64,000 nucleotides of DNA. Source: a bacterium. GTDB lineage: Bacteria; Patescibacteriota; Microgenomatia; Levybacterales; UBA12049. Below the pieces are notes generated by a model. It had not been told where the DNA came from. It saw nothing but the letters and a program-made list of their open reading frames with translations, and did no database searches. The stretch is from assembly GCA_021780675.1 (NCBI GenBank), contig JAJXYH010000004.1, positions 5,668 through 69,667 of the forward strand. The letters run 5' to 3'. Shown one piece after another: positions 15,879-62,625 of the stretch. Every line of letters starts with the position of its first letter. Positions within the stretch are counted from its first letter, which is position 1. The position numbers and the translations under genes are program-made.

Positions 15879-16109
15879 ATGCTTTCAAAATTTTTTTCAG
15901 CGGCAATTGTAGGCTTAGAGGGATTACCCGTTGAAGTTGAAGTTGACATCCAAAACCAAGGGCTACCGTCATTTACAATTGTTGGACTTCCAAACAAGGC
16001 GGTTGAAGAAGCAAGAACCATTGCAGATTTGGAAGGTTTTTTAGAAATAAAACCAAATCATATTACAGAAAGTCTTCAATACCGGCCAAAAACAGAAAAT
16101 GCTTATTGA
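15879..16109 (+). pseudogene. truncated remnant of comM/yifB (Mg-chelatase-like competence protein), N-terminal ~50 aa only
   Basis: MLSKFFSAAIVGLEGLPVEVEVDIQNQGLPSFTIVGLPNKAVEEAR matches the ComM/YifB N-terminus (…VEVDIS.GLPSFTIVGLPDTAVKESRERV…). Similarity is then lost, and the ORF stops after 76 aa with no AAA domain. Confidence 0.5.
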
Positions 16110-39003: not shown

Positions 39004-39005
39004 AA

Positions 39006-40454
39006 TTATTGATTAAAAATATTTAATATATCAACTCCAATGAAATTCATAAGGGTAAATGTAAAAATTATTAGAACCAGTCCTACAATTGCTGCAGTTA
39101 ATTGCTCCTGCGCATCTTTAGTTTTTTCGGGGTTTCCTTGTGAAACTATTAATTTATAAGCGGAGTAAATTATTAAAAGTGTTGCGATTCCGCCTGCAAT
39201 AGATAAAATAATTGAAAAGATTTTTGAAACTAACCCCTGAGAATCAGTGCTAAAATTACCAAATGCTGTTGGGCAAGTTGTTATATATTTCCCGTTCACA
39301 AGGGTTGTCGTGCAGGGAAGTTGACCGTTGGTAAATCCAGAACCAAGCCCCCCTCCACAACCAACCCCTTCAACGCACTGACTGGAGCTACAGCTTTGGT
39401 AAGTTGGAGAAGTAGTCAAAGCGGGTATATCTGGATGACTTTGTCTAGTACATTTTTGATTTTCCTGATTGGCAAGACTATTAAAAGTATAACCGCTAGG
39501 GCAGACAGCACAGTCTGTTCCTCCTCCTCTGCAGTGTGTTGCAGTACAGTCTGAAGCGCTGGTATAAGCCCCTGTCCCCGTACCTGTATGCACTACGCAT
39601 CCATATTGTGTGCAGTCATACCCGCCGCGGTTTGCATCAGCAGACCAAGTGCAACAGGTTTGAGTTGCGGCGCTTTGGCTTTTGCAGTAGGCGTTTCCAC
39701 TTGAGGTTATAATTCCCCCTGCTTGATGGCAGACGTTATTATTAGCTACACACTCTCCATCTCCTCCAGCGGGTGCAAAAGACTGGCAGGTTGGCGGTTC
39801 ACACTTGTTGGTTTTTAAATTACAGGTGTAACCTGTGTTTGCCCCACTACAGCTTCCATCAGCATTAGCGCTACAGGAGACTGTTAAATTGCAGTTCTTA
39901 TTGTAAACTAATCCACAATTTTTTGTGCCGCAAATTGCTGCTTGAGTGCAGCTTGGTGAAACGCATTTGCCGCTTCCCTGGTCCCATGAATAACCAGAAC
40001 TGCAAAGGCATTCTAAAATCGGTACCGCACCCGATTGGTTTGAATCTATACAGTTTAAACCAAGATTTGGTTTACATTGATACGTTCCATCGCAAGATTG
40101 ACCATAAGTTTTGTAATATGTGCAAACTCCAGTAGTTTTATTGGTATAAGCGAGAATAGAATTGCACGTACACATGCCATTTGGAGTGTAATATGTGGTG
40201 CAAGTTTGTTTACCTGTTGTGGGGTCGGTGACACATGTTTCATGTGAAGTATCTGTAGGGTTACTACAATACGTTGGGTAGCAACAAATACCAGGTGTTG
40301 CACCGCACGGCGCATTGGTGTTGGGCGTGCAATCTACCGCGGCAGCTGCCCAGGCATTATTTTTTAAAGGGGCTAAAGTAAAAAATAATATAAATAATAA
40401 AATTGCAGGAAACAAAAACTTAAGCAAACGCTTCATAAAATTATAGTAGAACAA
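39006..40454 (-). CDS. VirB2/TrbC-type pilin-like protein with large (~400 aa) Cys-rich ectodomain
   Basis: Signal peptide, about 60 Cys. C-terminal AYKLIVSQGNPEKTKDAQEQLTAAIVGLVLIIFTF pilin module. Confidence 0.55.
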   Translation of the reverse strand: MFYYNFMKRLLKFLFPAILLFILFFTLAPLKNNAWAAAAVDCTPNTNAPCGATPGICCYPTYCSNPTDTSHETCVTDPTTGKQTCTTYYTPNGMCTCNSILAYTNKTTGVCTYYKTYGQSCDGTYQCKPNLGLNCIDSNQSGAVPILECLCSSGYSWDQGSGKCVSPSCTQAAICGTKNCGLVYNKNCNLTVSCSANADGSCSGANTGYTCNLKTNKCEPPTCQSFAPAGGDGECVANNNVCHQAGGIITSSGNAYCKSQSAATQTCCTWSADANRGGYDCTQYGCVVHTGTGTGAYTSASDCTATHCRGGGTDCAVCPSGYTFNSLANQENQKCTRQSHPDIPALTTSPTYQSCSSSQCVEGVGCGGGLGSGFTNGQLPCTTTLVNGKYITTCPTAFGNFSTDSQGLVSKIFSIILSIAGGIATLLIIYSAYKLIVSQGNPEKTKDAQEQLTAAIVGLVLIIFTFTLMNFIGVDILNIFNQ

Positions 40455-40479: not shown

Positions 40480-41913
40480 TTAGTCTACGAATTTAAAACC
40501 ACGCCCTTTAACAGTTAAAATATGAATTGGGCTGTTAGGGTTATTTTCAATTTTTTTTCTCAACCTAAAAATTAATTGATCTAAAGCCTGGTCGGTTACA
40601 CCCAACGTGGTTTTTTGGTTTCCCCAAACAGCGTTAATGATGTCTTCTTTTTCTAAAATCTTTTCTTTCTGAGAGATTAAAAATTTTAATAACTTAAATT
40701 CGGAAGAAGTTAAATTATCGGAAATTACACCTTCGCCCAGTTTAATTTCATTAGTGTTTTCATCAACAGTTAATTTAAGACCGGTTTTTACAGTTTGGGA
40801 TTTAATAATTGCGTTTTTAATAAATTCTCCAAATAGCGGAATTGTTACTTTTCCACCGGAAACAAGGAAGATTTTTTCTAAAAAAGGTTGTTGTTCTTTG
40901 TTGTCGATAAAATATTGCTGCTCTGAAGGGTTTAAACTGTTCCAGATAGAGAAAAGCGAGCTTCTTACCGGGCGCTGTGAAAGCAAATAAGTTATTAATT
41001 GGTTGTTTTCGGAAATTAATTTTTTTTCGGCGGTAAGTGCCGATTCAAGCGAAAGAATGGTTAGTCTTCCGTGTCCTGCAGTTAATTTTGATATTTCATC
41101 AAGCATTTTTTTATCGACTTTTTTATTGATTATTTTTTCAAGATATGAAATTCTAAAATCAAGACCCGGCTTGTCTAAGATGGGCAAATAGATAATTTTT
41201 TCCGCCAAATATTCAAAAAAATCGGCAAAAAGCATTGGTTCAGTTACATCTTCGAGGGGTTTATTTAAAGAAAATACAGCAGAAAAATAATATTTTGCCC
41301 TGTTTCTTAAAACTCTAAGGTTGGCAAAAAATTCGTTTGTGAGCATCGGAATATATTCTTCGAATCTATCAAAAAGGAGAATCAGTTTTAAATTTCTTTC
41401 AACACATAAATAGTCAATTGTTTTTTTAAGGCCTGCAAAAAGCACCATTTCATCGTTGAACCCGATACTCTCTTTAAAATAGTTATTAATTACTTCGTAC
41501 TCTTTTTTTAAACCTCTTTCGCGCAAGGAATCTAAAATTCCCAAGAAGATAAATTTATTTGCATCAAATAACGGTCTTTTTCTAATTTCGGAAAAGTTTA
41601 AAAGGACAAAATGAAAATTTTTCTGATTTTCCCCAAGATGAATAAGTCTTACTTTTTTATTGTAAGAAAGGAGCCCCAAAAGATTAGATCTGCCAACACC
41701 CGGAATAGATACGACTTGACAGGAATTGCCCTCTTTTATAAATTTGAGAATTTTTTCAATTTCTTCAAATCTTGAATTTTGCGGGTATAAACTTTCGAAA
41801 TGTTCTGTTTCCATAAAGATATTGTAATTTTTTTGTAATACAAATATCAAGCTAAAAAATTCCCGCGGATTTAAAATTTTGGCATATGAAAGAACGCGGA
41901 GATGAATTGACAA
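40480..41913 (-). CDS. transcriptional regulator: AAA-like NTPase domain (GVGRSN Walker A variant) + C-terminal OmpR/PhoB-type winged helix; immediately upstream of pilin operon
   Basis: VVSIPGVGRSNLLGLL, LILLFDRFEE. C-terminal INAVWGNQKTTLGVTDQALDQLIFRLRKKI...ILTVKGRGFKF. The true start is probably the internal METEHF. Confidence 0.5.
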   Translation of the reverse strand: MSIHLRVLSYAKILNPREFFSLIFVLQKNYNIFMETEHFESLYPQNSRFEEIEKILKFIKEGNSCQVVSIPGVGRSNLLGLLSYNKKVRLIHLGENQKNFHFVLLNFSEIRKRPLFDANKFIFLGILDSLRERGLKKEYEVINNYFKESIGFNDEMVLFAGLKKTIDYLCVERNLKLILLFDRFEEYIPMLTNEFFANLRVLRNRAKYYFSAVFSLNKPLEDVTEPMLFADFFEYLAEKIIYLPILDKPGLDFRISYLEKIINKKVDKKMLDEISKLTAGHGRLTILSLESALTAEKKLISENNQLITYLLSQRPVRSSLFSIWNSLNPSEQQYFIDNKEQQPFLEKIFLVSGGKVTIPLFGEFIKNAIIKSQTVKTGLKLTVDENTNEIKLGEGVISDNLTSSEFKLLKFLISQKEKILEKEDIINAVWGNQKTTLGVTDQALDQLIFRLRKKIENNPNSPIHILTVKGRGFKFVD

Positions 41914-44282
41914 ACCAGGCTAATTCCTTTAGTCTTGAAGGAAGAGGAGGTATTATGCCGGACGGAGGAACACCAGAACAACCAGAGCCAAATTTAAGTC
42001 CAGAAATAAGCGGAGATGCGTTAGCGTCGTCAAATAATTCTGTTGCAAGACTTGAAGAGTTAGCGGGAGAAGGCTCCGGAGAGAGAATTAGAGAAGAGCA
42101 AAAAAAATCCCAAAGAAAATTTTTGGAAAGTCAAGAATCCGATAGGCTGCCAAGATCATTTGAAGACTTGGTCGGGAAAATAATGAATTCGGCAGAAGCG
42201 CAGTGGAAAGAAGATGGAGATCAGGCATTAATAGATAAAGAGGGAAATATTAATAAAGAAAATTTTTTAGCCTGGGTAAGAGATAGGATGATGTGGCTTC
42301 ATGATTTTAATTCGGTTACTGAGACCAGCTTTTTTTCCGACGTTAACATAACTGTTGGTTATGCCAAAATTACCCTTTACGATATGATTTTTACCGGTAA
42401 ATACTTTTTACACGAAGTAAAGGGTAATGATGGAAATATTTCTTACCATAAAAGTGATGATCTTGAAAAACTTAAAGATCAGCTTATAAACGAAGCATTT
42501 CTTTTTGGAAATTCCAGAAATAATGATGTTAAGTATAAGTCGATGATGCCTAATGAAGCAGAACTTCCAAAACTCTTGCAACAAATATATTTTGCTAACC
42601 CGTTTTTAAGAGGCAGCAACTTTCAGGATATTTTAACACTTAATTCTGTTGATAAAAATAGAATTCAACAGCTAAGAGATGAATCCGGCAATGTTGCAGA
42701 GTTTGATAAAAACAGGATTAAAAATCTGGTTGAAAAAGATTCAAGTGTTGGAGAAGGGGTAAGAAGAGCACTCCTTGCCTATTACCACATACGTGATATT
42801 GAGATGCTTAAAAAAATATTTGAGGTGGAGGAAGGTAAAAAAATTCAGAATTTAGCTCTTTTTATGGAAGGATACGATGATTATGATTCAAAAACTTTAA
42901 GACTTGCAGTTGATGAAAATGGCGCAAATAAACCTAAGAAAAAGGGTGAAGCAAATCAGGATTTAAAAGACACAGAAGCAGCGGAAAATATCCCCGATGG
43001 GGAAAAAACTTCAGTTGAATACGATAGCGATGGGAAAGTTAAGTTAGATACTAAAGCCCAAATCAAACGATTTACGGATTATATGAATCCATTTAATTTG
43101 GCCAGAAAAGAGGAAAGACAAGAAGGTGAAATTCGGGAAAGAATTAGGCAATCAATAATGCAGGTAACAGGACTTACTTATTCGGAAGCAAAATATGCAG
43201 AGTCATGGGCGTATTCAATGGCCAGATGGACGGGAATTGGCGCAAGAAACGATACGGGAGCCGCTGCATTTGATGCATGGAGTAAACCGCAAAATTTACT
43301 TCCATACAGACTTAAGCAGCTGGAAGATAAAAGACTGGGTGTATTTGGGAATAAGTTTAATCTGGCAGGAATTAAAAGAGCAGGACTTACGATGTTTGAG
43401 GGGATTTCCGATATCCATGGCAGAAATATTATAGAGGCAATTCAGGGAGGACAAGGAATGGAATTTAACGCAGATAATCCGTTTAAAACCACAGATGCAA
43501 AAACAAATCTTGCTTTTGGAAAAGATACAGGAAGCTTTTTTGTTAGTAATCATGTGATGAACTCATTTAAGATCTACGATTTTATAATTAACCATACAGA
43601 CTTTAATATCGAAGATATGATTACATATGATACTTTTGGAAGGCCGATAATCGACCATGAAAAAGCGGATAAAATAATTGATGGTATTCAAAAGGCTATC
43701 AGGTACGCGTATTGCACATGGGATGGGATAAACTACAACAAATCTATAAGAGTTATGGAAAAAGATGTGGATGGAAACGATGAAATAAAAGAAATGCCAC
43801 TTATTGCAGCGATGTTTGGACCCGATATTTTAAAAATGATCCAAAACGATATTAGTGAGAGGGAAGCAAGGCTTAAGCCAGGAGAGTCTTTAACACGGGG
43901 CGTAAGAACTAATATTTGGACAATTGCTCCTGATCACGATAATTTCCAGATGGATATGGAAAAAGTACAATCGAAAGCTGTTAGGGAAGTGCTTTGGAAA
44001 AGTATATTACAGTACTTAATCGCAGAAGAAGTACATTCACATAGAAGCAGGGCCAGTGAAGAAACAAGGTATGGCTATGATATGGTAGAAAAGGTGTACG
44101 ACTTCTTAAGAAGAAAAGGCATTGCCGATAAAGCGGAAATTGATGAGATGCGAAAACTTAGTAATTCTACTCTTAGGGTATTAAATATAGAAGATTTTGT
44201 AATGGAGGCAGGTAAAGGAACACTTAAAGGTTTTTGGAGTATGATGAGAATAATAATGAGCGGTCTTATGACAGGGAAGTAA
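41886..44282 (+). CDS. large soluble hypothetical protein (798 aa), divergent from the regulator
   Basis: No TM and no recognisable catalytic motifs. Acidic N-terminus. The start may be the downstream MPDGGTPEQ. Confidence 0.4.
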   Translation: MKERGDELTNQANSFSLEGRGGIMPDGGTPEQPEPNLSPEISGDALASSNNSVARLEELAGEGSGERIREEQKKSQRKFLESQESDRLPRSFEDLVGKIMNSAEAQWKEDGDQALIDKEGNINKENFLAWVRDRMMWLHDFNSVTETSFFSDVNITVGYAKITLYDMIFTGKYFLHEVKGNDGNISYHKSDDLEKLKDQLINEAFLFGNSRNNDVKYKSMMPNEAELPKLLQQIYFANPFLRGSNFQDILTLNSVDKNRIQQLRDESGNVAEFDKNRIKNLVEKDSSVGEGVRRALLAYYHIRDIEMLKKIFEVEEGKKIQNLALFMEGYDDYDSKTLRLAVDENGANKPKKKGEANQDLKDTEAAENIPDGEKTSVEYDSDGKVKLDTKAQIKRFTDYMNPFNLARKEERQEGEIRERIRQSIMQVTGLTYSEAKYAESWAYSMARWTGIGARNDTGAAAFDAWSKPQNLLPYRLKQLEDKRLGVFGNKFNLAGIKRAGLTMFEGISDIHGRNIIEAIQGGQGMEFNADNPFKTTDAKTNLAFGKDTGSFFVSNHVMNSFKIYDFIINHTDFNIEDMITYDTFGRPIIDHEKADKIIDGIQKAIRYAYCTWDGINYNKSIRVMEKDVDGNDEIKEMPLIAAMFGPDILKMIQNDISEREARLKPGESLTRGVRTNIWTIAPDHDNFQMDMEKVQSKAVREVLWKSILQYLIAEEVHSHRSRASEETRYGYDMVEKVYDFLRRKGIADKAEIDEMRKLSNSTLRVLNIEDFVMEAGKGTLKGFWSMMRIIMSGLMTGK

Positions 44283-44286
44283 TTAT

Positions 44287-46071
44287 TTAAGATCTAATTA
44301 TCGGTTTTCCATTTCGATCAACTAGCCCCGTCCCGCCCGTGTCTGTTCCCCCTGTAATATTAGATTCATTAGGTTTTTTTCCAGTAATTTCTTCATGCAC
44401 CGCTTTTAATTGGTCATGTCTGCCGGAAGCTGTTGCGACTTCTTGCGAGGACGGAGTTCTGGCTACAAAACCGGTTGCTCTTTGCAGTGCATTCCTTTGG
44501 ACTGTTTTAGATGACTCATTATAGTTTCCGGCTGTATATCTTTGTAGCCTGCTTCCAACAAAACCTCTCATTTGATTTGTTCTTGGATCTCTATAGTACA
44601 TTCTGGATGCAACACCCCCGGCAAATCCTGCAACAGCTGCTTGTCCTGTGCCAACGCCGCCCATACTAAGCCCACTACCTCCTGCGCCAAAGGTTTTTCT
44701 AACCTTTTCGACAATGCTGGGTGATGCGAGAATAAAACCAACTGCAATTAAAGCTCCATACATTGTCTGATTCCCTCCACCTGTTACATTTCCAATTATG
44801 GGGGGGTTAAACATTGTACCGGCATTTGACTGCGACAGCGCGTCCATGATAGTTCTTGCGACAATAAATACAAATAAGGTTGCAGGAAATGGCGCAAGAT
44901 TCCCGGCCATATTTTTTATCCAGGAGGTAAAACCTAAGCTCCCACTAGCCCCGGGTATAAGACCACCCAGAATCCATAAAGGAGCCAAGATTGTTCCAAG
45001 CAAAACATTGATAAAACATTTAAGAAGCGCAAACCAAAGCCTAAACAGGGCAACAATAACGGCAATTACAAAAATAAGAAATACAATAATCCCGGCAATA
45101 AAACCAATAAGACTTGCAATTAAATGCCAGAAAGCATCCATAATCGTATTAACCCAACAGCCTAAGAAAAAGCATCCCTGACTAGAATTATTATCGGTCA
45201 TTGCTCCAGAAACTTGGTTGGATGCCAGAACATTATGTACTAGGCTTCCAACACTCGAAGCAGCTGAGGCAGAAAGACCTAAAATTCCACCATCTTTTCC
45301 GCCAAACATATCATTAGTAAATCCAATACTTGACTCCGTTGCCCACTTAGATATATCTACGTGTTGTGCATTAGGAGTTAGCGTATCAATTACCAAAAAA
45401 TTAGTAACCCACATGGCATCTATTAAAAGTCCGGCAATTGCATAGGAAAAAGTGATCATTACAAGCCCGATAATAAGTTTTGGAATTTGGTTTTGGATTG
45501 TCATAACAGTTCGGGGGTCAATTCTTAAGCGTAGCATTATTGCAATCCCTACAATTATAAAAATCACCATCATTAGAAGGTATGCAAGATTTCTAAAAAT
45601 TGTAAACAAACCAAGAACAGGTGATAGTCCTACAAAACCAATACTATTGTCCGCTGCATTTGCAGTTTTTACAATACCGAAATTATTTGCAGCATAGGCA
45701 ATATAATCGGAAGTATGTACGGGTATTAAATAAGTTGCGGTAAGTAAATTTCCCATCATGCCTATTGCTCCTCCACCACTTTCTTTAACAAAGCCGATTC
45801 TTCCGGTATTTTTATCTATTCCGAGACATGATTGTTTTGAATTTATAGGATCAATGCCTGTAAGTTGGCAAATCATAGAAGACATGGTTTCAATCATTAC
45901 ATTTTGAGTCCAGGTATGTAAATTGACCGGAACATTAGGATCCATATTGGATGAAAGCGTTTGCTTAAGTTGAGTGGAAGAGCTCTGAGCAAACGACTTG
46001 TGGGGGCTGATAATAAAAACCAATAAAATAAAGGCAAAAAACAAACCTAAGACCTTGGCAGCAAACCTCAT
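44287..46071 (-). CDS. VirB6/TrbL-like polytopic membrane protein
   Basis: Signal peptide (SFA-QS), at least 7 hydrophobic helices, Gly-rich C-terminal tail. The assignment rests on architecture and context only. Confidence 0.4.
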   Translation of the reverse strand: MRFAAKVLGLFFAFILLVFIISPHKSFAQSSSTQLKQTLSSNMDPNVPVNLHTWTQNVMIETMSSMICQLTGIDPINSKQSCLGIDKNTGRIGFVKESGGGAIGMMGNLLTATYLIPVHTSDYIAYAANNFGIVKTANAADNSIGFVGLSPVLGLFTIFRNLAYLLMMVIFIIVGIAIMLRLRIDPRTVMTIQNQIPKLIIGLVMITFSYAIAGLLIDAMWVTNFLVIDTLTPNAQHVDISKWATESSIGFTNDMFGGKDGGILGLSASAASSVGSLVHNVLASNQVSGAMTDNNSSQGCFFLGCWVNTIMDAFWHLIASLIGFIAGIIVFLIFVIAVIVALFRLWFALLKCFINVLLGTILAPLWILGGLIPGASGSLGFTSWIKNMAGNLAPFPATLFVFIVARTIMDALSQSNAGTMFNPPIIGNVTGGGNQTMYGALIAVGFILASPSIVEKVRKTFGAGGSGLSMGGVGTGQAAVAGFAGGVASRMYYRDPRTNQMRGFVGSRLQRYTAGNYNESSKTVQRNALQRATGFVARTPSSQEVATASGRHDQLKAVHEEITGKKPNESNITGGTDTGGTGLVDRNGKPIIRS

Positions 46072-46305
46072 ATTAATTACAGTTTGTATGATTTTTATTT
46101 GCTTGTCAAGTTTAAGATGAAGAGTAGTATAAATTATTTTATATGCATGCGCGGGATAATTCCTTTCCCAAATAGTATAAGGCAGGATTTAAATACTCTG
46201 TCAAATAGGTTTAAAAAATTATTATATTGCAGAATTTCTGCGGATATTCTGCATAATTTAAGCAACTTATTAAATTTAACAAATAAAAGATAAGGCTTAA
46301 ATTAG

Positions 46306-46392
46306 CGGAGAGGGCGAGATTCGAACTCGCGAAGAGCTTGCACTCTTAGCGGTTTTCAAGACCGCCGCACTAGTCCACTATGCGACCTCTCC
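46306..46392 (-). tRNA. tRNA-Ser (anticodon TGA), class II long variable arm
   Basis: Manual fold: acceptor GGAGAGG/CCTCTCC, anticodon stem GCGGT/ACCGC, loop CTTGAAA, T-arm GCGAG-TTCGAAT-CTCGC. Confidence 0.8.
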
Positions 46393-46525
46393 AAGTGTAT
46401 CGAGGAGATTAGTACCTGCATGAAATGCATGGTACGACCTCTCCGTAATGCTAATTATAATTTAACTTGATGGTTTATGCCAGTATTTACTTGACTATTA
46501 GTTTCTTATCTACTACATTAAATTT

Positions 46526-47056
46526 ATGCCAAGTAAAAAGGATTCAGCCCCAAAAGAAGAAATTAATGAAGCTCAAGATACTACGCTTCTAGAATGGGAG
46601 TCACCTGGAAGACCATTTAAAAAAAGAACAAAACAATATTATTTAACAGCACTTTTAATTACTCTTCTGGTTGAAACCATTCTATTTTTATTCTCAGAAT
46701 ATTTACTAATGTTTGTGGCGGCCTCGCTTTTGTTTGTAACCTTTGCTCTTGCGAGCGTTCCTCCCAAAACTTTCAAATACCGCATATCTACTCAAGGCAT
46801 TCAAATTGAAGACAGGTTTTTTATTTGGCAGGAGTTTTATGATTTCTATTTTTTAAAACGCGAAGACACGGAAACATTGCATATAAGAACCGAAGCCTTT
46901 TTCCCCGGTGAGTTAGTTTTAACTTTCAATGTGGAAAATAAAGAAAAAATTAAAAAAGCATTGATTGACTATATTCCCTTTAGGGAGTACGTTAAATTAA
47001 CTTTTATGGAAAGGTCAGCCGATTGGCTTGCCAGAAATTTTCCCCTGGAAAGTTAA
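46526..47056 (+). CDS. membrane protein, hypothetical
   Basis: 176 aa, two hydrophobic helices after a basic N-terminus. Confidence 0.35.
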   Translation: MPSKKDSAPKEEINEAQDTTLLEWESPGRPFKKRTKQYYLTALLITLLVETILFLFSEYLLMFVAASLLFVTFALASVPPKTFKYRISTQGIQIEDRFFIWQEFYDFYFLKREDTETLHIRTEAFFPGELVLTFNVENKEKIKKALIDYIPFREYVKLTFMERSADWLARNFPLES

Positions 47057-47101
47057 CAATTTGCCCCAAACTATTATATAAAGTAAAATACGAGTATCTT
47101 T

Positions 47102-47174
47102 GTGCCCGTAGTTCAACGGATAGAACACCTGGTTGCGGTCCAGGCGGTTGGAGGTTCGATTCCTCTCGGGCACG
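47102..47174 (+). tRNA. tRNA-Arg (anticodon read as GCG)
   Basis: Acceptor GTGCCCG/CGGGCAC, D-arm GTTC-AACGGATA-GAAC, anticodon stem CCTGG/CCAGG with loop TTGCGGT, T-arm GGAGG-TTCGATT-CCTCT. The isotype is inferred from the anticodon only. Confidence 0.65.
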
Positions 47175-47179
47175 CAAAA

Positions 47180-48901
47180 TCAATTACAATTCCCACCGGA
47201 AACTTTAATATTTTTCAACTGATTATAGAAATTCTGGTAAATATATCCATAATTTTTTATCGTGCAATCGTTCGGGTCATTTTTGTGTAATATAAAGTAG
47301 ACTTGTTTTTCTAAATTTACCCAATTTGCCCGGTCAAAAAAATATAAATAATTAATTAGCGAGTTTGTATCTAAATTTGTACCGATTTTAAACGTGTTTT
47401 TGTCAATTAAATATTTACTAATTAACTTTTTATTCTCGTTATTATTTTTAATTAAAATTAATGAAAAGTCATCCAAATAAATAGGCTTGAAGTCTGAACT
47501 ATTTAAGTAAAATTGAATATTCTTTGAAGATTCATAAGTATAGAACACAAAAATAATATTAACTTTGTATTTTATAAAAATCGGTTTTAATAAGTTGGGG
47601 TTTTGAGTAGCCGGGTAATAAACATTAAGACCGAATTCTTTTGGGTAAGCTTCCGGACGGGCGTCAATAAATACTTTTTCTTTGGGGAACAAAGAGTACG
47701 CCAAATATTGTCCGCTGTCAAAATTATTATAAATTGGTCCATGCAGTTTATTATCCAAATAAAAAGTAATGGAGTTTTTGCCGGGATTATTTGCGCCAAG
47801 GCCTAACATTTGTTGGGAAACGTGTTTAAAAAGAAAAAGAACCAAGCACATACAGATAAAAAATAAGATAAGATTTTCAAAATTAACAATCCTTTTATTG
47901 GATAATGTTTTTTTTGCAAAAATTAACAGATTATTTATAACCAAGCTTAAAATTTTTACCGATGGAATAAAAATTGCATATGCAAAAAAGGCAATGTTCC
48001 GGTTTGCGTAAACCACGCCGAATGTAAAAGTAAAAATCAATAAAAAATCGGATAAAAATAATTTTTTCCGGTAGCGTAAGCCCAACAAAAACATAAAAAT
48101 TCCATAACAAATTGCAGTTAAAAACGGTTGGTAATACATACCGTTTCTAATCATGTAAATTATATTTTGGTTTTCGGCAATTGACACGGAATATCCAAGG
48201 TTAAAACTTAACGGGAATAGTGCGCCATTAATAAAATTTGGGTTTAAAAAAGTAGCTATTATTGATAAGAGAAAAACTTTTGATAAAGTTTTAAATTTTT
48301 GTGAACGGATGGTTTTGCCTGAAAAAAATTCATCAATAGCAAAAATAAAAATTAAAACAAGTCCTAGGACAAAAAAGATATGCAGGTTTACCCATAAGGC
48401 TTCCATTGGGATTAATAGATATATTAGTAAGGTCTTTTTCTCTTTAAATTTATAAAGAATAAGCAAAAACAAAGTGAGTAAAAAATAGCTGAAGATTTCC
48501 GGACGTATTTCGTTTCTCAAGAAGACTAAATTTAAAATTATAAGTGAAGTTAATAATATAGAAATTGGATGGAATCTTTTAATGGAATAAATAATTAAGC
48601 TTAAAAAAGTAAGCAGTGATATTATTTCAATAAAAATAACTAAGCCATTAAACCCCGTAAAGTTTACAATTAAATATAATATGATTTCCGAAAGCCAATG
48701 GGAATTTACATAATGATAATTGGTGTTTGTATAAGAGATTAAATTGGTTTTTATAATCTCGTGTGTTTGTACCATGTACTTACCAAACAAAAGATGTCTT
48801 CCCAGGTCAAGATTAAGCGATGCGGGATGGAAGAAAGCAATAAAAATAAACAGGAAACAAAAAAAATAGGCACAAACTAATAAGATTTTCTTTAATCCCA
48901 T
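47180..48901 (-). CDS. large polytopic membrane protein, possibly GT-C family glycosyltransferase
   Basis: 573 aa with >12 hydrophobic helices. No verifiable motif. Confidence 0.35.
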   Translation of the reverse strand: MGLKKILLVCAYFFCFLFIFIAFFHPASLNLDLGRHLLFGKYMVQTHEIIKTNLISYTNTNYHYVNSHWLSEIILYLIVNFTGFNGLVIFIEIISLLTFLSLIIYSIKRFHPISILLTSLIILNLVFLRNEIRPEIFSYFLLTLFLLILYKFKEKKTLLIYLLIPMEALWVNLHIFFVLGLVLIFIFAIDEFFSGKTIRSQKFKTLSKVFLLSIIATFLNPNFINGALFPLSFNLGYSVSIAENQNIIYMIRNGMYYQPFLTAICYGIFMFLLGLRYRKKLFLSDFLLIFTFTFGVVYANRNIAFFAYAIFIPSVKILSLVINNLLIFAKKTLSNKRIVNFENLILFFICMCLVLFLFKHVSQQMLGLGANNPGKNSITFYLDNKLHGPIYNNFDSGQYLAYSLFPKEKVFIDARPEAYPKEFGLNVYYPATQNPNLLKPIFIKYKVNIIFVFYTYESSKNIQFYLNSSDFKPIYLDDFSLILIKNNNENKKLISKYLIDKNTFKIGTNLDTNSLINYLYFFDRANWVNLEKQVYFILHKNDPNDCTIKNYGYIYQNFYNQLKNIKVSGGNCN

Positions 48902-51264: not shown

Positions 51265-52635
51265 CTATTTAATCTTTTCAGAGGCTAGTGTTGTCGCAAC
51301 CACAACAAGAAGTGCCAGAAGACCTAGTCCTTTAGCTCCATTTTTTAATTTACCCAGCGCATCTAATTTTTTGCGTTTTTCCTCCGCCTCCGGGGAGGTA
51401 TCATCTTTTAATTTTTCTTCAGCATCGGCAATAACTGCTTCAATAACCGGTTTAACATCTCCGCTTCTAATTGCATCAGTAATTTTTTTTGCAGTTTCTG
51501 CGGGAATTTCACCGCTTTGTATTTTATTGCCAAAATCTGCAATTAAATCATGTGCGCTTTGTCCACCGTTTGCTTCTAAAACCGTACCCCAATTTTGAAG
51601 CATTGAAGCTTCGTTTTGCAAAGACAATATTTGCTGGCTTATTTGCGCTTTTTGCGCCTCAGTCGTTGCTGTCTCCAATCGTTTACTAAGTTGACTTAAT
51701 TCATTTGGAATTTCTGTGCTTCTTGTTGAAATATCATCGGGAGTAAGATTTGCTCCCATCAGTACGATTTCGGCAAGTGTATTACCTGAAATAATCACTT
51801 CATCGCCCATTGCTTGTCTTGCAGCTTCTATTTGATCAGCAGAAATAGATGATTTTTGAGAATCCAGATAAGTATCAATATCGGATCTTGTAATAAGGTT
51901 TGCTTCTCTTGCTTCTTGTTCAAGTAGATCCCGGGTTCTAGCGATATTTTCATCACTAAACATCTCTTGCGCTAATGCCTGGGCTTTGTTAGGATCTTGC
52001 ATTGTGGCAATATAATAATCTATAAACTGAGCGTCATCTCCTGTAAACATTGCTGTCAATTCCTGCTGTTCGGCAACAATTTGCGCATCAATTAAATCAT
52101 CCCAGGGAACTATTTGAGTTCCTTGTGGTTTTGAACCGGTTGGAAGTTCATAAGCATCCTCGTCTTGTGTATTTTCAAGAATTGCCATAGCTTTTCCGTT
52201 GTCATTTACCACCCCGCTTATTTTTAAGACTCTGACGACCTTTTGTTCTCCATTAAGTGTGATCGTTACATAAATTGGTTTTTCACCTCCTGAATGGTCG
52301 GTAGTTATATCAACGGGTTCTTCTTTTCCATCTTGAGCATTCGTTAACATCACTTTTTCGCCATTTGAATGAGTTAGGGTATCATTTTTTAAGCCCATTA
52401 AGCCCTTAAGTAAATGTCCTGTTTCTCCTCTTTGGAGTGGGGGATCTTTAGTTAGTTTTCTGGCAAGCAAAACTTTTCCAAGTCTAATTGCGTCTTTTTT
52501 TGCAGTATCTCTTATTTCATCTGTTATTACGGGCGCTTCATGATTTTCTGCATCAGGTTGGGCAGTATCATCTGGCAATTCTGGTGCGGCAGTGTCTGGT
52601 TGTGGTTGTGGAGCTTCGGCTCCGGTTTCGCTCAT
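51265..52635 (-). CDS. tail-anchored hypothetical protein (acidic Pro-rich N-terminus, single C-terminal TM)
   Basis: 456 aa. C-terminal GLGLLALLVVVATTLASEKIK. Confidence 0.4.
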   Translation of the reverse strand: MSETGAEAPQPQPDTAAPELPDDTAQPDAENHEAPVITDEIRDTAKKDAIRLGKVLLARKLTKDPPLQRGETGHLLKGLMGLKNDTLTHSNGEKVMLTNAQDGKEEPVDITTDHSGGEKPIYVTITLNGEQKVVRVLKISGVVNDNGKAMAILENTQDEDAYELPTGSKPQGTQIVPWDDLIDAQIVAEQQELTAMFTGDDAQFIDYYIATMQDPNKAQALAQEMFSDENIARTRDLLEQEAREANLITRSDIDTYLDSQKSSISADQIEAARQAMGDEVIISGNTLAEIVLMGANLTPDDISTRSTEIPNELSQLSKRLETATTEAQKAQISQQILSLQNEASMLQNWGTVLEANGGQSAHDLIADFGNKIQSGEIPAETAKKITDAIRSGDVKPVIEAVIADAEEKLKDDTSPEAEEKRKKLDALGKLKNGAKGLGLLALLVVVATTLASEKIK

Positions 52636-52648
52636 AAATTTATATTAG

Positions 52649-55627
52649 TTGATTTTTATTGTCAAATCAATTAATAATAAAGATAGTATGGCTATAGACA
52701 ATATAGACAATGTGTCAACGCGTGGGCCAGATGCTGCAGGTGATAAAAAAAGTAATCAGCCACCAAAAAGAATTGTTCCTTTTTCTCCAACCAGCGATAA
52801 AACCGCAATAGATGCAAATGGAGCGGCTGTTAAGGTTAGAGCATCTGAGTTTTTAACTAGAGTATCTGGATTAGAAACAACAGATAGAGACAGGGTTTTA
52901 ACTGGAAAAGTTGAAAGAGACGAACTTCCGATTAGTGCAGAAGTAGTGACGGGTTTAAGAAATTTTACAGAAAGTTATGTCCGAAAACTTGTCCTACTTA
53001 GAAAAGACGGTGTGTATGACCAAATGAAAAGGCAGCAAGAAAGAGGTAGCGACCAGGCGGATTATTTGGAAGACAAGTATATGCTGGAGCTTTTTACCGA
53101 CAAACAAACTGGTGAAGCTAAAAAATTCGGGGAAATAGAAAATTTAATAACTGAACATCCTCTGATTTTGCAAAATGTAATGCTGGTTGCTGAAAGATAT
53201 GCAAGAGATACGCTGGCAGCTTATGGGTTAAGGGCAGAGATGTATAGGCCTGGGAAAAGAACAGAGCTAACAGATCCAAGACTTGAGCGAACAATTGATC
53301 TTCCGGTTGATCAAGGAGCGTTAAGATCAACTTATAACCGAGTACGAGATTGGACGCAAAGAAGACACGAAGTGGGTGGAAGGCCCGATCCAAACGATCC
53401 CGATTCCAATTTAGATTATTTTTTAAACCATGCCGGTATACCGGTTGGAGCTGGAGCAATTGGTGTTGGAACGATAGGTGGGGTAGTCGGAGCGGTCGGA
53501 GCTTTGTTTGGTGCGGGACCAGGAGAAGTGGGGGGTGCTATTGCCGGTGCTGCAGTTGGCGCGGGTGCTGTTTTGGGTGGGTTAGCGGTCGGTAGATCAT
53601 TCCGGGAGGGTCCAAGATTAAGGTTAGTTGTAGATAATGAAGTTAGAGCGCAGTCTCAAAGAGGAGCAGAAAGACTTAGAATGGAGAGGTTAATTGGTGT
53701 TAACCCGACAAACTTAACAGAATCAACCGACAGCCCTGCTGCAAATGATGCGATTAAAATAATATATCTAAGGCAAATGTATTTAAGGAATTTAGATAAT
53801 TCAGGTGAAGTATTTGATGCCTTTAGCGATCAATTTATAACTAACGGAGGTACGGCAAACCGGTTTGAGGAAACGCGAACGGTTATGGGGTCTAGGGTAA
53901 ATGCGGAATTTCAAAGTTTAAGAGATGCTTATTTAAGAAATCATCCTGATGCAACCCCTACACAACTTAGAGATTTTTACAGAAGAGCGCAGGAAACAGT
54001 TTTATTTAGAAATTTTGAGGAAGTTTCCGAAAAGGTAAGGCCCGAAGAAAACATAGCAGGAAAGTTGCAAACTGCTATTGATGCAAGAAAACCCGAAGGG
54101 TCAGCTCATGTGGAAAGAACAAGAGTTGCAAGTGAAGAAAAAGGCCGTTTGACTACCGAAAAACAAACTCTTGCTGCATCAAGAGAAGCCTTAACAGGAT
54201 ATGAGGGGAAATTACTAACAATAGAAAAAGCGCGTCAGGACCTACAGAGGGAACTTGCAAAAATTAATGGGGGCGGATTGGATTACGCTCATGCATTACA
54301 AGAGCTGCGAATAGCTCAAAGCGCAACCGGAACAACGATTACAATTACAACAGATACGGGTATAGAAACAATTACAGATTTACATAGCGATATATTAGCT
54401 CATAGTCAGGGTCTTGCTAATGATCTTGGGAATATTAGAATTCCAAATCCTGGTGAGGATACAGATGCATATCGAGATTTCCGTAGTGCAGAGGCTGCAA
54501 AGATTCGTTTAGCTCATAAACCCGAAACAGACGAAGACAACAGGAAAACACAACTTATAATAAGTAGAATAACAGAATTAACAAGACTCCAGGGGGTAAT
54601 TGATGAAGCATCAAGGAATTTACTTCAGGCAGAAGAAATAAAAGCCGGTGGGCAAGAATTTGTAAAATTTCAAGAAGCATTTCAGCGTGTTGATTCCCTT
54701 GGTCTTCCAGGGGCATTATTGTTTACCCAAACGCTTGAGCAAAATCTAGCTGATGCAAATAATTTGTTCGATATGGATCCTAATTTCGGCTGGCCTGAAA
54801 GCGAAAACAACCAGATGCGGGAAGTTTTAAGAAGAGCAACTATTCAAGCAAGGGCAAACGATGCAGAAAGGGCAGATCCTATTCTTGCTCCTTTTGAGAA
54901 TAATTTTGATGAATTTAGGGGACTTGGTTTATCTACGGAACAAATTGCCTTAATGAGCCTAGACGACTTAAGAGCAAGATATGTTCGCACACATCCTGCG
55001 GCAACCGGAACCGAAGCAGATAATGCTCAAAGATGGGCTTTGGGACAATTAAGGTTTTTACAAGCGTCTGTTAACCAAGAAGCAACAGTAGTAGATAATT
55101 CTCTTAGGGTACAGGAGAGGTTTATAAACGGAGTTGATCTGACTCAAGAGAGAGAGCAACTGGAAGTTGTAAAAGATATGTGGGATAAAAGAAAAGGCAT
55201 TAGAGCAAGAGCAGTTGATGGGGTGCTTAATAATCGCGCTGGCCTTGAAAATACAGACCACGTTCAAGCAAATACGGAAGGTTTTACTCAGGCAGAGGCA
55301 GATTCACAGCTACCAAGAAATGTTTTGGAGGTTTTAAATATGATTACCGGTTATCAAGACGTAGATAATGCAGACGGTAGAGCTGAAGCTTTTGCTAAAA
55401 TATGGAGAAATTTTGGGCAAAATCCACCAACAGCTGATACACTGTTGTTAGTAAGATTAAGAGATGCGTTTGAGGTTCCGCAAGCTCACGCAAACAGCTT
55501 TAACGAGCTAGCAGCCTATCTTAGGACAAGGTTTAGAAACAATAGGATTAATTCTGGTAACATTGCGCAATACGTAGGAAGAAACGCTGTTTCACAATTT
55601 ACTGAGTGGGGAAGGAGCTTAGGATGA
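52649..55627 (+). CDS. large hypothetical protein (992 aa) with ~55-aa glycine-zipper hydrophobic segment
   Basis: GIPVGAGAIGVGTIGGVVGAVGALFGAGPGEVGGAIAGAAVGAGAVLGGLAVG at about residues 255-310. The rest is soluble, helical and acidic. Locally GC-richer DNA. Confidence 0.45.
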   Translation: MIFIVKSINNKDSMAIDNIDNVSTRGPDAAGDKKSNQPPKRIVPFSPTSDKTAIDANGAAVKVRASEFLTRVSGLETTDRDRVLTGKVERDELPISAEVVTGLRNFTESYVRKLVLLRKDGVYDQMKRQQERGSDQADYLEDKYMLELFTDKQTGEAKKFGEIENLITEHPLILQNVMLVAERYARDTLAAYGLRAEMYRPGKRTELTDPRLERTIDLPVDQGALRSTYNRVRDWTQRRHEVGGRPDPNDPDSNLDYFLNHAGIPVGAGAIGVGTIGGVVGAVGALFGAGPGEVGGAIAGAAVGAGAVLGGLAVGRSFREGPRLRLVVDNEVRAQSQRGAERLRMERLIGVNPTNLTESTDSPAANDAIKIIYLRQMYLRNLDNSGEVFDAFSDQFITNGGTANRFEETRTVMGSRVNAEFQSLRDAYLRNHPDATPTQLRDFYRRAQETVLFRNFEEVSEKVRPEENIAGKLQTAIDARKPEGSAHVERTRVASEEKGRLTTEKQTLAASREALTGYEGKLLTIEKARQDLQRELAKINGGGLDYAHALQELRIAQSATGTTITITTDTGIETITDLHSDILAHSQGLANDLGNIRIPNPGEDTDAYRDFRSAEAAKIRLAHKPETDEDNRKTQLIISRITELTRLQGVIDEASRNLLQAEEIKAGGQEFVKFQEAFQRVDSLGLPGALLFTQTLEQNLADANNLFDMDPNFGWPESENNQMREVLRRATIQARANDAERADPILAPFENNFDEFRGLGLSTEQIALMSLDDLRARYVRTHPAATGTEADNAQRWALGQLRFLQASVNQEATVVDNSLRVQERFINGVDLTQEREQLEVVKDMWDKRKGIRARAVDGVLNNRAGLENTDHVQANTEGFTQAEADSQLPRNVLEVLNMITGYQDVDNADGRAEAFAKIWRNFGQNPPTADTLLLVRLRDAFEVPQAHANSFNELAAYLRTRFRNNRINSGNIAQYVGRNAVSQFTEWGRSLG

Positions 55628-56007
55628 CAACTAAAATTAATACTAAAACAATGATAAATTATTTGCCTTTTCCAAACGAGGTTAAATTAGAATTGTTGGG
55701 TAAATTCGATAATTTATCAAATGATGATCAAACTAAAATTACGGATTTGGTTTGGGATGCATTTGAAATTGTTTACAACAACAAAGTTCAAGAAAATTTA
55801 GATAAATTAATTGCGGAGGCCGATGAGAATGGACAAAAAACAGATGATACATTTTACGGAAAAGCAGTTGATATGACAGACCAGGAAGTTAGAGAAGGTT
55901 TAACATCAACAACAGATGTTGCCGATCTTACCAATGTTAGAAAAAGCATGGAATTAATTGTAAACGAAATAAAAGCCGCACAAAATGAAGGAACGCTGAA
56001 AAAGTAA
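55624..56007 (+). CDS. small acidic hypothetical protein, translationally coupled to the 992-aa gene
   Basis: Start ATG at 55624 overlaps the upstream TGA (ATGA). GGAAGGAG SD at 55611-55618. Confidence 0.4.
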   Translation: MTTKINTKTMINYLPFPNEVKLELLGKFDNLSNDDQTKITDLVWDAFEIVYNNKVQENLDKLIAEADENGQKTDDTFYGKAVDMTDQEVREGLTSTTDVADLTNVRKSMELIVNEIKAAQNEGTLKK

Positions 56008-59811: not shown

Positions 59812-60504
59812 ATGAATTTTTTGGATTTCGTTTTTCCTAAAAGATGTGTTGTTTGCAAAAGAGCGGGAAGTTATCTTTGTGGAAATTGTTTCGTAACCCT
59901 TTCATTTGATGTAAAAAACTTGTGCCTTGTCTATAATAAGCCAACATTTAATAATTTAACTCATCCGGTTTGCAAATCTAAATATGCAATAGACGGGTGT
60001 TTTTCCGCCGTTTCTTACAATAAGACCACTAAAAAATTAGTATCCAGTTTTAAATACAACCCATACTTTACAGATTTTCAATTCTTATTGACAGACCTTT
60101 TTTACGAAAGCCTTATTTAAAATGAATATTTTCAAAAATTAATTTCAAACGGTAACTGGACTTTTGTTCCCATTCCGCTTTTTCCATCAAAGCATAGAAC
60201 GCGGGGTTATAACCAAGCGGAAATTTTGGCAAAAAACTTATCAAAAGTATTTAAAATGCCAGCGGGGAATTTACTTATACGAATAAAAGATACAAAAACA
60301 CAAGTTGGAAAGGGCAATATCGACAGAAAATTAAATATTAAAGGAGCATTCAAAATATCAGACAGTAAATTTTCAATAGCAAATAAAAATATATTTCTGG
60401 TGGACGATGTTATTACAACAGGATCAACTTTAAACGAAGCGGCAAATGTCTTAAAAAGGGAAGGGGCGAGAAAAGTAATAGGAATAACTTTTGCAAGAGA
60501 TTAA
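59812..60504 (+). pseudogene. comFC: comFC-like (ComF family phosphoribosyltransferase) gene interrupted by an in-frame TAA at 60118-60120
   Basis: N-terminal zinc finger CVVCKRAGSYLCGNC...C. The region after the stop reads NWTFVPIPLFPSKHRTRGYNQAEILAK (the ComF signature), then the PRTase motif IFLVDDVITTGSTL. Both ORF-track pieces (59812-60120, 60226-60504) are in the same frame. Confidence 0.6.
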
Positions 60505-60505
60505 T

Positions 60506-60534
60506 AAAAAACCACCTTCAAAAAGGTGGTTTTA
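60506..60534 (+). terminator. rho-independent terminator after comFC (bidirectional)
   Basis: aaaaaccacctt-caaaa-aggtggtttt hairpin with a U-tract on plus and an A-tract upstream. Confidence 0.6.
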
Positions 60535-60660
60535 TGTGGACACAATCCAAATAAATTGGAATCAAATAGAAGACTATGTTTTTAAGTGGTATCCAATATT
60601 GCAGAGAAGAAGCCTAGCTTCGCTTTAAATAATTTTAGGAGATATCACAAGGTGTTATTT
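60535..60660 (+). repeat. direct repeat R1 (~125 bp), near-identical to R2 at 61636-61765
   Basis: tgtggacacaatccaaataaattggaatcaaatagaagactatgtttttaagtggtatccaatattg(c/t)agagaagaagcctagcttcgctttaa is shared; ~95% identical over the first ~100 bp. Confidence 0.7.
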
Positions 60661-60669
60661 GAACTTAAT

Positions 60670-60909
60670 TTAAATTAATCTGCTAACAAAAAGAACAATT
60701 AATGCTCCGCCAATTGCAACCGCAAAGGAAACTAAATTAAACCCCGTTACTCCAACATTTAAAAACATTTCTCCTAAATATCCACCAACTACAGCACCTA
60801 TCACGCCCAATATAATTGACCCTATTATTCCACCTCTAAATCCAGGAGAAATAAAATTTGCTATGGTTCCAGTAATTAATCCAAAAATTAACCAATAAAT
60901 TATACTCAT
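60670..60909 (-). CDS. GlsB/YeaQ/YmgE family transglycosylase-associated small membrane protein
   Basis: 79 aa, Gly-rich TM helices (ITGTIANFI...GGIIGSIILGVIGAVVGGYLG). Confidence 0.65.
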   Translation of the reverse strand: MSIIYWLIFGLITGTIANFISPGFRGGIIGSIILGVIGAVVGGYLGEMFLNVGVTGFNLVSFAVAIGGALIVLFVSRLI

Positions 60910-60958
60910 ATTCTTTTCACATCCTTTCTAAAACCTAATTTTAAAAACAACAAGCTAC

Positions 60959-61348
60959 TTAAGCCTGTTGTTTTTTACCTGAAAGTATTCTTAATAACTT
61001 TACAATCCCTACTGCTAATACTGCATATACAACTACTGCAACTATTGTCGCTGGCTCTAAGACTGCTGTTGTGACCGCACCTTGTCCTGTGGCTTGTTGA
61101 AATATTCCCTGAAAGGGAACTACAAAAATACTCGTAATACCATAAATAAAACCTACAAAAACGCTATATCCATTGGCTCCTGTTAGTCTTAATATTAACC
61201 TAAAAATTAATAGTATTTCTAATGCACCAAATATAAAATAAATTAAATATTCTATTGTTTGATAGCTTGTTGCTTGTTCACTACTCGTTGAAACCGCAAC
61301 TGGAGTATTATTCTGTGTGTTTACTGTCTCTTTTACTAATTCTGCCAT
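60959..61348 (-). CDS. YggT-like small membrane protein
   Basis: ILLIFRLILRL and a second TM repeat. Assignment tentative. Confidence 0.4.
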   Translation of the reverse strand: MAELVKETVNTQNNTPVAVSTSSEQATSYQTIEYLIYFIFGALEILLIFRLILRLTGANGYSVFVGFIYGITSIFVVPFQGIFQQATGQGAVTTAVLEPATIVAVVVYAVLAVGIVKLLRILSGKKQQA

Positions 61349-61592
61349 TCTTTTTCACATCCTCTCTTATATCAACTTTTTTGATAATTGTTTCTTTTGG
61401 TAAATACTGAATTAATGCTTTTTCTACAAGGCCGGTAAGCGTCAAGTCTTCAATGATTGCTTGAGCCTTAGCCTGCTTTGCGATTGAGGAATTAATAAAA
61501 AGAGTTACTCTTTGGATGTTGTTAGTTGTCATACTTGATATATTACAACTAATTGAAGTACTTGTCAATGTATCAATACTGCCTTTTGCCAA
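61308..61592 (-). CDS. small hypothetical protein, possibly ribbon-helix-helix; true start probably the internal Met (~61532)
   Basis: MTTNNIQRVTLFINSSIAKQAKAQAIIEDLTLTGLVEKALIQYL resembles a CopG/RHH fold. The N-terminal 20 aa overlap the upstream gene. Confidence 0.3.
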   Translation of the reverse strand: MAKGSIDTLTSTSISCNISSMTTNNIQRVTLFINSSIAKQAKAQAIIEDLTLTGLVEKALIQYLPKETIIKKVDIREDVKKNGRISKRDSKHTE

Positions 61593-61641
61593 ATAAAAAA
61601 GGATTAGATTGTATTATCAACCTAATCCTTTAATTTGTGGA
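61591..61641 (+). repeat. 51-bp copy of the tmRNA terminator hairpin plus the last 10 nt of the tmRNA 3' end (direct repeat of 62575-62625)
   Basis: aaataaaaaaggattagattgtattatcaacctaatcctttaatttgtgga is identical at both sites. Confidence 0.75.
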
Positions 61642-61765
61642 CACAATCCAAATAAATTGGAATCAAATAGAAGACTATGTTTTTAAGTGGTATCCAATAT
61701 TGTAGAGAAGAAGCCTAGCTTCGCTTTAAGTTATTTAAGTTGTTATCACAGGGTGGTGTTGGAAC
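61636..61765 (+). repeat. direct repeat R2 (see R1)
   Basis: See R1. Confidence 0.7.
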
Positions 61766-61805
61766 TGTTGATAAAGATAGTTAATTTATTTATACTCGTA
61801 GTATT

Positions 61806-62576
61806 ATGACCGATGGACAAGAAATACCACAATATCTTCCTCTCCCAGAGTTTATGAAGCAAATTGAAAGTGGTGATTTTGACCTTGCTCAACTTAGAAC
61901 AACAGTAGGTCAGTTAAGCGAGACGACATTTGGACAAAATTTAAATAAATACCTTGATTTTGTAACCAGCAATACTGGGGCACACGCTATATTAAGAGGA
62001 GAGCTGCATCCACGAGGCGTAGAGTCAGAGTTTGCCCACGGCAACTTACCTATTAGACAAGAAGTTGCAAGACGCATTGAGCAGAGCACTGGTTTTCATT
62101 TTGACCCTGCAGTATCAACACCTGAGCAAAGAGAAGAAATTTGGGGAGCACTTCAAGAATTTACAGGAGTTCAAGTTGATGGTGCAACAAGAGAAAAAAT
62201 AAATTTAGGAATACCAGATAAGTTTCCACCAAGTGTTTATAGAATACCTTGGATAGGGGAAGACGAGGTTATTATTAGACAAGATGAGATTTATGCAATT
62301 GATAGAGATGTTAAGCCTGGTCATATTCTTAATGCATCAGAACATACATACACTGTGTTTAAGGGCGGAGCCTTGAAAGGTGTTCTCTCTATGACAGAAT
62401 TAAGTGATTATGAAAAAGAGAAGGGTAAGAGTACTGTCTATGCAAGAGTTTCGCCTAAACCTCTTTCTCAAACTTATTTTACTGATAAAATCTCTGGTAA
62501 AGCGAGAAATGAATTTGTTTATCTAAATTCTAGTTCACCTTATTTGCAGCCAGCAAGACCTCATACAGGCGCTTAA
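61806..62576 (+). CDS. hypothetical protein carried between the two 51-bp direct repeats at the tmRNA 3' end
   Basis: 256 aa, no recognisable motifs. Composition less AT-rich than the flanks. Confidence 0.4.
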   Translation: MTDGQEIPQYLPLPEFMKQIESGDFDLAQLRTTVGQLSETTFGQNLNKYLDFVTSNTGAHAILRGELHPRGVESEFAHGNLPIRQEVARRIEQSTGFHFDPAVSTPEQREEIWGALQEFTGVQVDGATREKINLGIPDKFPPSVYRIPWIGEDEVIIRQDEIYAIDRDVKPGHILNASEHTYTVFKGGALKGVLSMTELSDYEKEKGKSTVYARVSPKPLSQTYFTDKISGKARNEFVYLNSSSPYLQPARPHTGA

Positions 62577-62625
62577 ATAAAAAAGGATTAGATTGTATTA
62601 TCAACCTAATCCTTTAATTTGTGGA
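62575..62625 (+). repeat. 51-bp direct repeat copy 2: tmRNA terminator hairpin (62581-62617) plus tmRNA 3' end
   Basis: See 61591-61641. Confidence 0.75.

Follow-up and report, generated by a model that had tools for sequence, protein, structure and literature searches.

The window, by which we mean the whole stretch of 64,000 nucleotides that was analysed, is a stretch of Patescibacteria (Levybacteria-like) chromosome, compact and low in GC (about 35%), and the source labels of its close homologues are likewise Patescibacteria or Levybacteria. It carries the rnpA-yidC-jag and dnaA-dnaN origin neighbourhood, together with genes for primase, a sigma-70 factor, pyk, purA, ruvABC, valyl-tRNA synthetase (ValRS), tmRNA and smpB, as well as a T4SS-like cluster. 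Two of its loci, comFC and comM, belong to the natural-transformation pathway. No second comF or comM copy was detected by tblastn within the window, Pfam scans of about 70 window ORFs revealed no other competence gene (comEA, comEC, dprA, pilins or yraN), and the large intergenic gaps between window genes hold small ORFs only.

The comFC locus (59812-60504, forward strand) is a single ComF-family reading frame, comprising a double zinc ribbon and a phosphoribosyltransferase (PRTase) domain, which is split by a TAA codon. Read in one frame, 59812-60507 comprises 102 codons, the TAA at 60118-60120 and 127 further codons and ends in TAA TAA, with the native stop of the gene at 60502-60504. The 5' segment (59812..60117, +, codons 1-102) encodes the double zinc ribbon, extends into the "hood" region and aligns one-to-one with relatives of 227-245 aa, while the 3' segment (60121..60504, +) encodes the PRTase domain, including VPIPL...RGYNQAE and the PRPP-loop sequence VDDVITTGST. 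Pfam DZR_2 was matched at residues 3-48 before the stop (35.8 bits against a cutoff of 27) and Pribosyltran after it (38.5-40.4 bits against a cutoff of 26.3), the PRTase domain and the VDDVITTGST motif being found only downstream of the stop. When the two segments were joined with an X at the stop position, all 190 positions of NCBIfam TIGR00201 (1-190) were covered by one alignment that spans the stop (E 1.3e-31), although the score of 110 bits lies below the curated cutoff of 233.55. Because the family model aligns end to end and the two Pfam domains flank the stop, the segments are not a chance pair of ORFs, and the ComF relatives carry the source annotation ComF or ComFC. The locus thus lacks the single uninterrupted two-domain polypeptide by which a ComF protein is recognised. 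As well, no in-frame ATG, GTG or TTG follows the stop before 60226 (TTG, codon 139), which lies within the PRTase domain, downstream of its VPIPL...RGYNQAE motif, so the PRTase domain could not be produced separately in a meaningful form. A terminator-like hairpin (60508..60533, AAAAAACCACCTTCAAAAAGGTGGTTTT) lies directly 3' of comFC and is also present after comFC in L063, the closest relative by this gene.

More than 100 uninterrupted relatives of comFC were retrieved, which are full-length at 227-245 aa and share 59-71% identity with the window gene. The premature stop at codon 103 (60118..60120, +) arose from a Gln codon, CAA, through a single C>T transition; its context in the window is ATT TAA AAT, compared with ATT CAA AAT in L063 (70% protein identity) and in a further relative, L004. 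In 14 genes CAA is the commoner Gln codon (113 CAA versus 73 CAG), making CAA>TAA an expected route to a nonsense mutation. The stop is accompanied by other changes. The N-terminal Cys4 finger (C12, C15, C23 and C26), which is invariant in relatives, is present, while the ligand set of the second ribbon, which in close relatives consists of C38, C41, H51 and C54, is incomplete. Codon 41 (TAT, 59932..59934, +) encodes Tyr in place of the second Cys of the double zinc ribbon's second CxxC motif, a TGT>TAT change at a zinc-ligand position which is Cys (TGT or TGC) in at least 95% of 120 relatives. The C41Y substitution is likely a second disabling change in comFC.

The extent of such changes was assessed by a leave-one-out comparison of 121 sequences, considering each column at which at least 95% of the other sequences agree. 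The window comFC departs at nine of 97 conserved columns (C41Y, I77V, K83N, L86F, L89F, Q103*, K130T, L225I and L227F), while the 120 relatives depart at a mean of 1.41 columns (sd 1.49, maximum 8), and those as divergent as the window gene depart at 1-6. An intact MBL-fold gene of the same genome, which was used as a control, is changed at one of 83 conserved columns against a mean of 1.03, so the excess of substitutions is specific to comFC and is not a long-branch effect. We read this as a sign that selection on comFC has been relaxed for some time, and, by rough inference, its neutral divergence would amount to roughly a few percent, with no indel so far.

The TAA lies only one base from the CAA of relatives, and consensus assemblies alone underlie the stop call, so that a sequencing or assembly error in a gene that is really intact has to be considered. 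This reading is extremely improbable. An identical 102-aa ORF is present in the NCBI MAG GCA_021833605.1 (99.93% DNA identity), in Logan SRR13178630 (100%) and in ENA ERZ27236847 (100%), which come from different assemblers, and an intact comFC allele of the window species was absent from a collection of 5.8 billion proteins, where the best match showed 70% identity. Moreover, comFC carries C41Y and seven other conserved-site changes, compared with one in the control gene, and comFC is the sole window gene split by an in-frame stop, the other same-frame neighbours being separate genes or non-coding frames. The species of the window was also absent from a genome-contig collection scanned for comFC alleles (best match 64%), a search of JGI metagenome contigs for the exact sequence around the stop, in which the first base of the stop codon was left as N, returned 0 matches, and a literature search on the sample and assembly accessions found no mention of them. 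Readthrough or recoding of the TAA as Gln, whether by a suppressor tRNA or by a reassigned code, would equally yield a full-length ComFC. Gln is the amino acid assigned to TAA/TAG codons in some eukaryotes and phages, it is the residue expected at this very position, and the comFC frame is perfectly conserved past the stop. Nevertheless, of the 64 long ORFs in the window, 49 terminate in TAA, among them purA, dnaA, pyk and ruvB, whose ends coincide with those of their Pfam models; the conserved genes of the window hold no other in-frame TAA; no suppressor tRNA or other tRNA with the anticodon UUA occurs among the seven tRNA/tmRNA genes of the window; and CAA is the majority Gln codon. Within the window, the hallmarks of stop reassignment (avoidance of TAA as a terminator, many in-frame TAA codons and a cognate tRNA) were not found, and recoding can be regarded as hardly conceivable. 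The original prediction, made from the window sequence, had described a comFC frame that continues through the TAA with the ComF signature and the PRTase motif, which the end-to-end TIGR00201 alignment confirms, and had rightly considered recoding unlikely. It had left a nonsense allele and a sequencing error side by side, of which the former is upheld, while the latter is contradicted by the three other assemblies, C41Y and the excess of conserved-site changes. Two of the checks proposed with it gave clear answers: Gln stands at the stop column in 28 of 28 aligned full-length relatives, with no shared stop, and the search for a suppressor tRNA among the window RNA genes was negative.

The second locus is a 76-aa ORF at 15879..16109 (+), in which ComM residues ~1-46 are joined in frame to the last ~30 residues of the protein and the AAA+ core is gone. 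Matches to Pfam were below the cutoffs, with ChlI positions 1-27 (of 121) at residues 20-47 and Mg_chelatase_C positions 69-94 (of 94) at residues 44-69, and PF01078, the AAA+ Mg_chelatase core that carries Walker A and B, gave no match in this ORF. In Legionella pneumophila ComM (PDB 8rxd), residues 10-46 and 469-497 were matched. When 1.84 billion representatives were searched exhaustively with HMMER, using the 76-aa query, the best match was a 512-aa ComM, aligned in two stretches, and the top 150 matches were mostly ComM proteins of 480-560 aa with the same two-stretch alignment. When the 446-aa ComM core was searched against the window by tblastn, only its last 38 residues (15993-16106) and a weak match to ruvB were recovered.

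The corresponding contigs of relatives were located via the neighbouring MBL-fold gene. At the orthologous position comM encodes 510 aa in L062 and at least 496 aa in L061, where the contig end cuts the gene, and in both the gene order after comM (small ORF, MBL, ruvB, ruvA, ruvC, L25 and TPR) is that of the window. Window positions 15864-16014 align with 1946-2096 of L062 at 78% DNA identity and 16012-16110 with 3396-3494 at 83%; the segment missing from the window is ~2097-3398 of L062, that is 1,302 bp or 434 codons, which agrees with the size of the remnant (510 - 434 = 76). The two alignments overlap at GCAAGAA (16011..16017, +), a microhomology at which the N-terminal ...GAA GCA A(A/G)A... 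joins the C-terminal ...(T)CA AGA AC..., corresponding to the Ala-(Lys/Arg) codons of ...AVEEAKER and the Ser/Ala-Arg codons of ...(S/A)RTIADLE, respectively. Such a junction is typical of slippage or illegitimate recombination. In the L062 translation, the deleted part contains Walker A (GPPGAGKT), Walker B, CPCG and the greater part of the lid. Since little of the Lon-like N-domain or the lid and nothing of the AAA+ motor is left, the predicted fusion peptide cannot be a branch-migration helicase.

Around comM, the flanking ORFs gave no Pfam match, and a 371-aa protein (14716-15831, -) with a weak match to "wHTH-PRTase associated" is encoded between purA and the stub. This protein is not found at that position in a second species, L055, in which purA directly precedes the stub.

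Lesions of comM recur in related genomes. L055 carries a syntenic 67-aa stub (280-483) with a different junction, AVEEAKE|IKPQH, and AAAGAA microhomology, compared with AVEEAR|TIADLEG in the window. In L059 (1733-3264) one base pair of the same purine tract is missing, which splits the gene into parts of 64 and 446 aa, and in L060 (5001-5162) a slip in an AG repeat is found at the same place. Independent lesions of four Levybacteria-like lineages, namely two different microhomology deletions and two frameshifts, start in the ...AVEEAKER... tract. These observations suggest that comM is often lost in the Levybacteria-like group, where the lesions of relatives could include assembly errors. The purine-rich tract (residues ~43-50) may be a mutational weak spot of comM. 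That it provides a recurrent, perhaps selected, switch-off of transformation in which the gene ends stay in frame and the downstream operon is spared, or that the mini-ComM peptides are functional, is very unlikely.

It is similarly unlikely that the remnants are retained for a function, either as a free ComFC zinc-ribbon fragment and a "mini-ComM" micro-protein or as comM ends kept in frame to protect downstream expression. Both remnants are open, and the 67-aa stub of L055 occupies the same locus. Among the 172 sequences retrieved with the comM stub (P0121-P0292), which include 85 full-length proteins and 57 N-terminal pieces, 29 are short in-frame N-C fusions, 16 of which break at residues 43-63. 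However, searches based on a stub favour in-frame N-C fusions by construction, so that these counts are a lead that may reflect ascertainment bias, and the fusions keep widely varying parts of the protein (N-terminal end at 43-332, C-terminal start at 269-485). The junctions also differ between species, comM is full-length in the closest syntenic relatives, and every catalytic motif is missing from the stubs; owing to the species-specific junctions and the full gene in the closest relatives, "mini-ComM" as a conserved small-protein family was rejected as the main reading. As for downstream expression, a promoter-like sequence TTGACA-17-TAAACT (10/12; 16106-16134) overlaps the comM stop upstream of the next gene, which starts at 16145, but matches to the promoter consensus are no more frequent than in shuffled sequence (2 versus a mean of 1.5). 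The window, L061 and L062 share the final 15 nt of comM (GAAAATGCTTATTGA) without a difference, and the promoter-like site might be the reason for the survival of the comM 3' end.

The loss of function in both genes, that is, the reading of comFC and comM as pseudogenes of the natural-transformation pathway which are fixed in the species and arose after its split from the nearest sampled relative, is very probable. L063, the best comFC match, and L061, the second-closest MBL/comM contig, both come from sample SRR34018680, and their proteins share 75% (His-phosphatase), 80% (SmpB), 80% (MBL) and 70% (ComF) identity with those of the window. If L061 and L063 belong to one organism, the nearest relative found apparently keeps both comFC and comM intact, which would make the decay lineage-specific, with both losses on the terminal branch of the window species. 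The comM pieces are 78-83% identical to L062 at the DNA level, while the MBL gene reaches 77% and ruvB with its neighbours 70%. That both remnants are still open and as similar to relatives as their functional neighbours would fit a recent loss, with residual constraint as a possibility. The comM stub occurs on 10 contigs from at least six samples at 99.9-100% identity, and the deletion is, judged from consensus assemblies that may conceal a minority intact allele, fixed in the sampled populations. Accordingly, the decay of two competence genes proposed in the original prediction is established by the nonsense codon and C41Y in comFC and by the 1,302-bp deletion in comM, while its alternative of strain-specific decay finds no backing, as the comM deletion is present in every sampled population (at least six samples) and no intact comFC allele of the species was found. 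Its view that 15879-16109 encodes only the first ~50 residues of ComM was correct as to the ComM origin but has to be amended, since the last ~30 residues are fused in frame. It had also pointed to the losses beside an intact T4SS-like locus; that locus (32371-40454) is indeed uninterrupted, while no evidence links it to the losses.

Several further features of the window were recorded. A segment of ~2.08 kb downstream of comFC (60541-62618) is missing in L063, where the comFC terminator abuts the tmRNA 3' end. It contains a Transgly_assoc-like gene (60670-60909, -), two small genes (60959-61348, -, and 61308-61592, -) and a 256-aa ORF without a Pfam match (61806-62576), and no integrase is present in it. 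The 3' end of tmRNA is a classic insertion site of genomic islets. A direct repeat of ~135 bp with ~92% identity is found at 60536-60670 and 61637-61770 inside the inserted segment, the first copy lying right after the comFC terminator; the two copies share a core 39-mer exactly (chance expectation 0 copies), and the 135-bp repeat beside comFC matched no Rfam family.

All genes of the T4SS-like cluster (32371-40454) are uninterrupted. They encode a C39-like peptidase, a 620-aa ATPase of the VirB4/TraG type, a protein of the PrgI family and, in four ORFs, proteins with a T4SS_pilin domain at the end. Two large proteins possess an OmpR-type Trans_reg_C winged-helix end, one of which (40480-41913) adjoins the T4SS-like cluster, while the other (23191-24492) lies ~8 kb off, across the origin region. 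Very large ORFs of 798, 594, 573, 456 and 992 aa without a Pfam match at E<=1e-5 occupy 41886-48901 and 51265-56007, and four tRNA-Ser genes with different anticodons are interspersed among them. The ValRS gene (21044-23155, -) encodes 703 aa and ends after the anticodon-binding domain, without the C-terminal coiled coil of Thermus thermophilus ValRS (862 aa), and the ORF that overlaps it encodes an unrelated TPR protein. This overlap of ValRS with a 146-aa ORF was the sole suspicious one in the window; as the two are separate genes without a frameshift, general assembly sloppiness and genome-wide decay were rejected.

The events at the two loci can be envisaged as follows. In comFC, CAA>TAA at codon 103 would stop translation after the zinc-ribbon/hood region, leaving a 102-aa product without the PRTase domain, and once selection had stopped, the gene would gather changes at conserved positions, including C41Y. 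In comM, illegitimate recombination or slippage between short direct repeats (GCAAGAA-type microhomology) would have deleted 1,302 bp, leaving the 76-aa in-frame fusion of both gene ends.

In conceptual read-through, the window comFC resembles the ComFC/ComF family (TIGR00201; Helicobacter pylori ComFC, PDB 7P0H; Escherichia coli GntX) in its N-terminal Cys4 finger, its second ribbon and its type I PRTase with VDDVITTGST; its C12, C15, C23 and C26 align with C3, C6, C15 and C18 of H. pylori ComFC, and it is syntenic with the intact comFC of the closest relative (His_Phos - comFC - tmRNA - smpB). It differs from the family in the TAA at codon 103, the Tyr at C41, the nine conserved-column deviations and the low TIGR00201 score. 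Likewise, the comM remnant shares with ComM/YifB, an AAA+ Mg-chelatase-like branch-migration helicase (L. pneumophila, PDB 8RXD), the first ~46 and last ~30 residues and, as in relatives, its chromosomal position, but it lacks 434 of 510 codons together with Walker A/B, the arginine finger and the CPCG zinc motif.

According to previous studies, transformation of H. pylori in vivo requires both domains of ComFC, its zinc finger and its PRT domain, and ssDNA transport and hand-off to DprA fail without ComFC (PMC9005727). ComM is a transformation-specific hexameric helicase, in the absence of which D-loop extension is impaired (PMC6158740, PMC11612176). Judged from these two genes within the window, the organism is most likely non-transformable, with imported DNA no longer integrated, because the loss of ComFC would stop the hand-off of ssDNA and the loss of ComM would impair D-loop extension. 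The com genes of Patescibacteria (ComEC, DprA and ComFC) were described as a conserved core which is broadly retained and on which natural transformation of the one cultivated model depends, while in a cultivated saccharibacterium comEC was required for transformation and com genes were dispensable for fitness (PMC10633639), making a loss of transformation plausible.

Competence loss through decay or disruption of com genes has been documented in other phyla. For instance, comM is disrupted by AbaR islands in Acinetobacter baumannii (PMC11441513), transformation varies or is lost within L. pneumophila and A. baumannii (PMC11472951), and Aggregatibacter (PMC3484387) and Haemophilus (PMC2689351) include lineages that are not competent. 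As in those cases, core transformation genes of the window are inactivated while the remaining genome is compact and intact. The window differs from them in that comFC was hit by a point mutation and comM by a deletion at a microhomology, with no mobile element in either gene, and in that the host belongs to uncultured Patescibacteria. The case is one of ordinary gene loss and a new instance of it in an uncultured CPR lineage.

For annotation, both loci should be treated as pseudogenes and not as two hypothetical proteins and a "magnesium chelatase" fragment. A natural lineage in which both cytoplasmic steps, the hand-off of ssDNA by ComFC and D-loop extension by ComM, have been lost adds a small piece of evidence that some free-living populations of Patescibacteria can do without transformation. 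Nucleotide synthesis is absent from Patescibacteria (CPR). If the uptake genes located elsewhere are intact, the species would provide a natural test of "DNA as food" versus "DNA for recombination".
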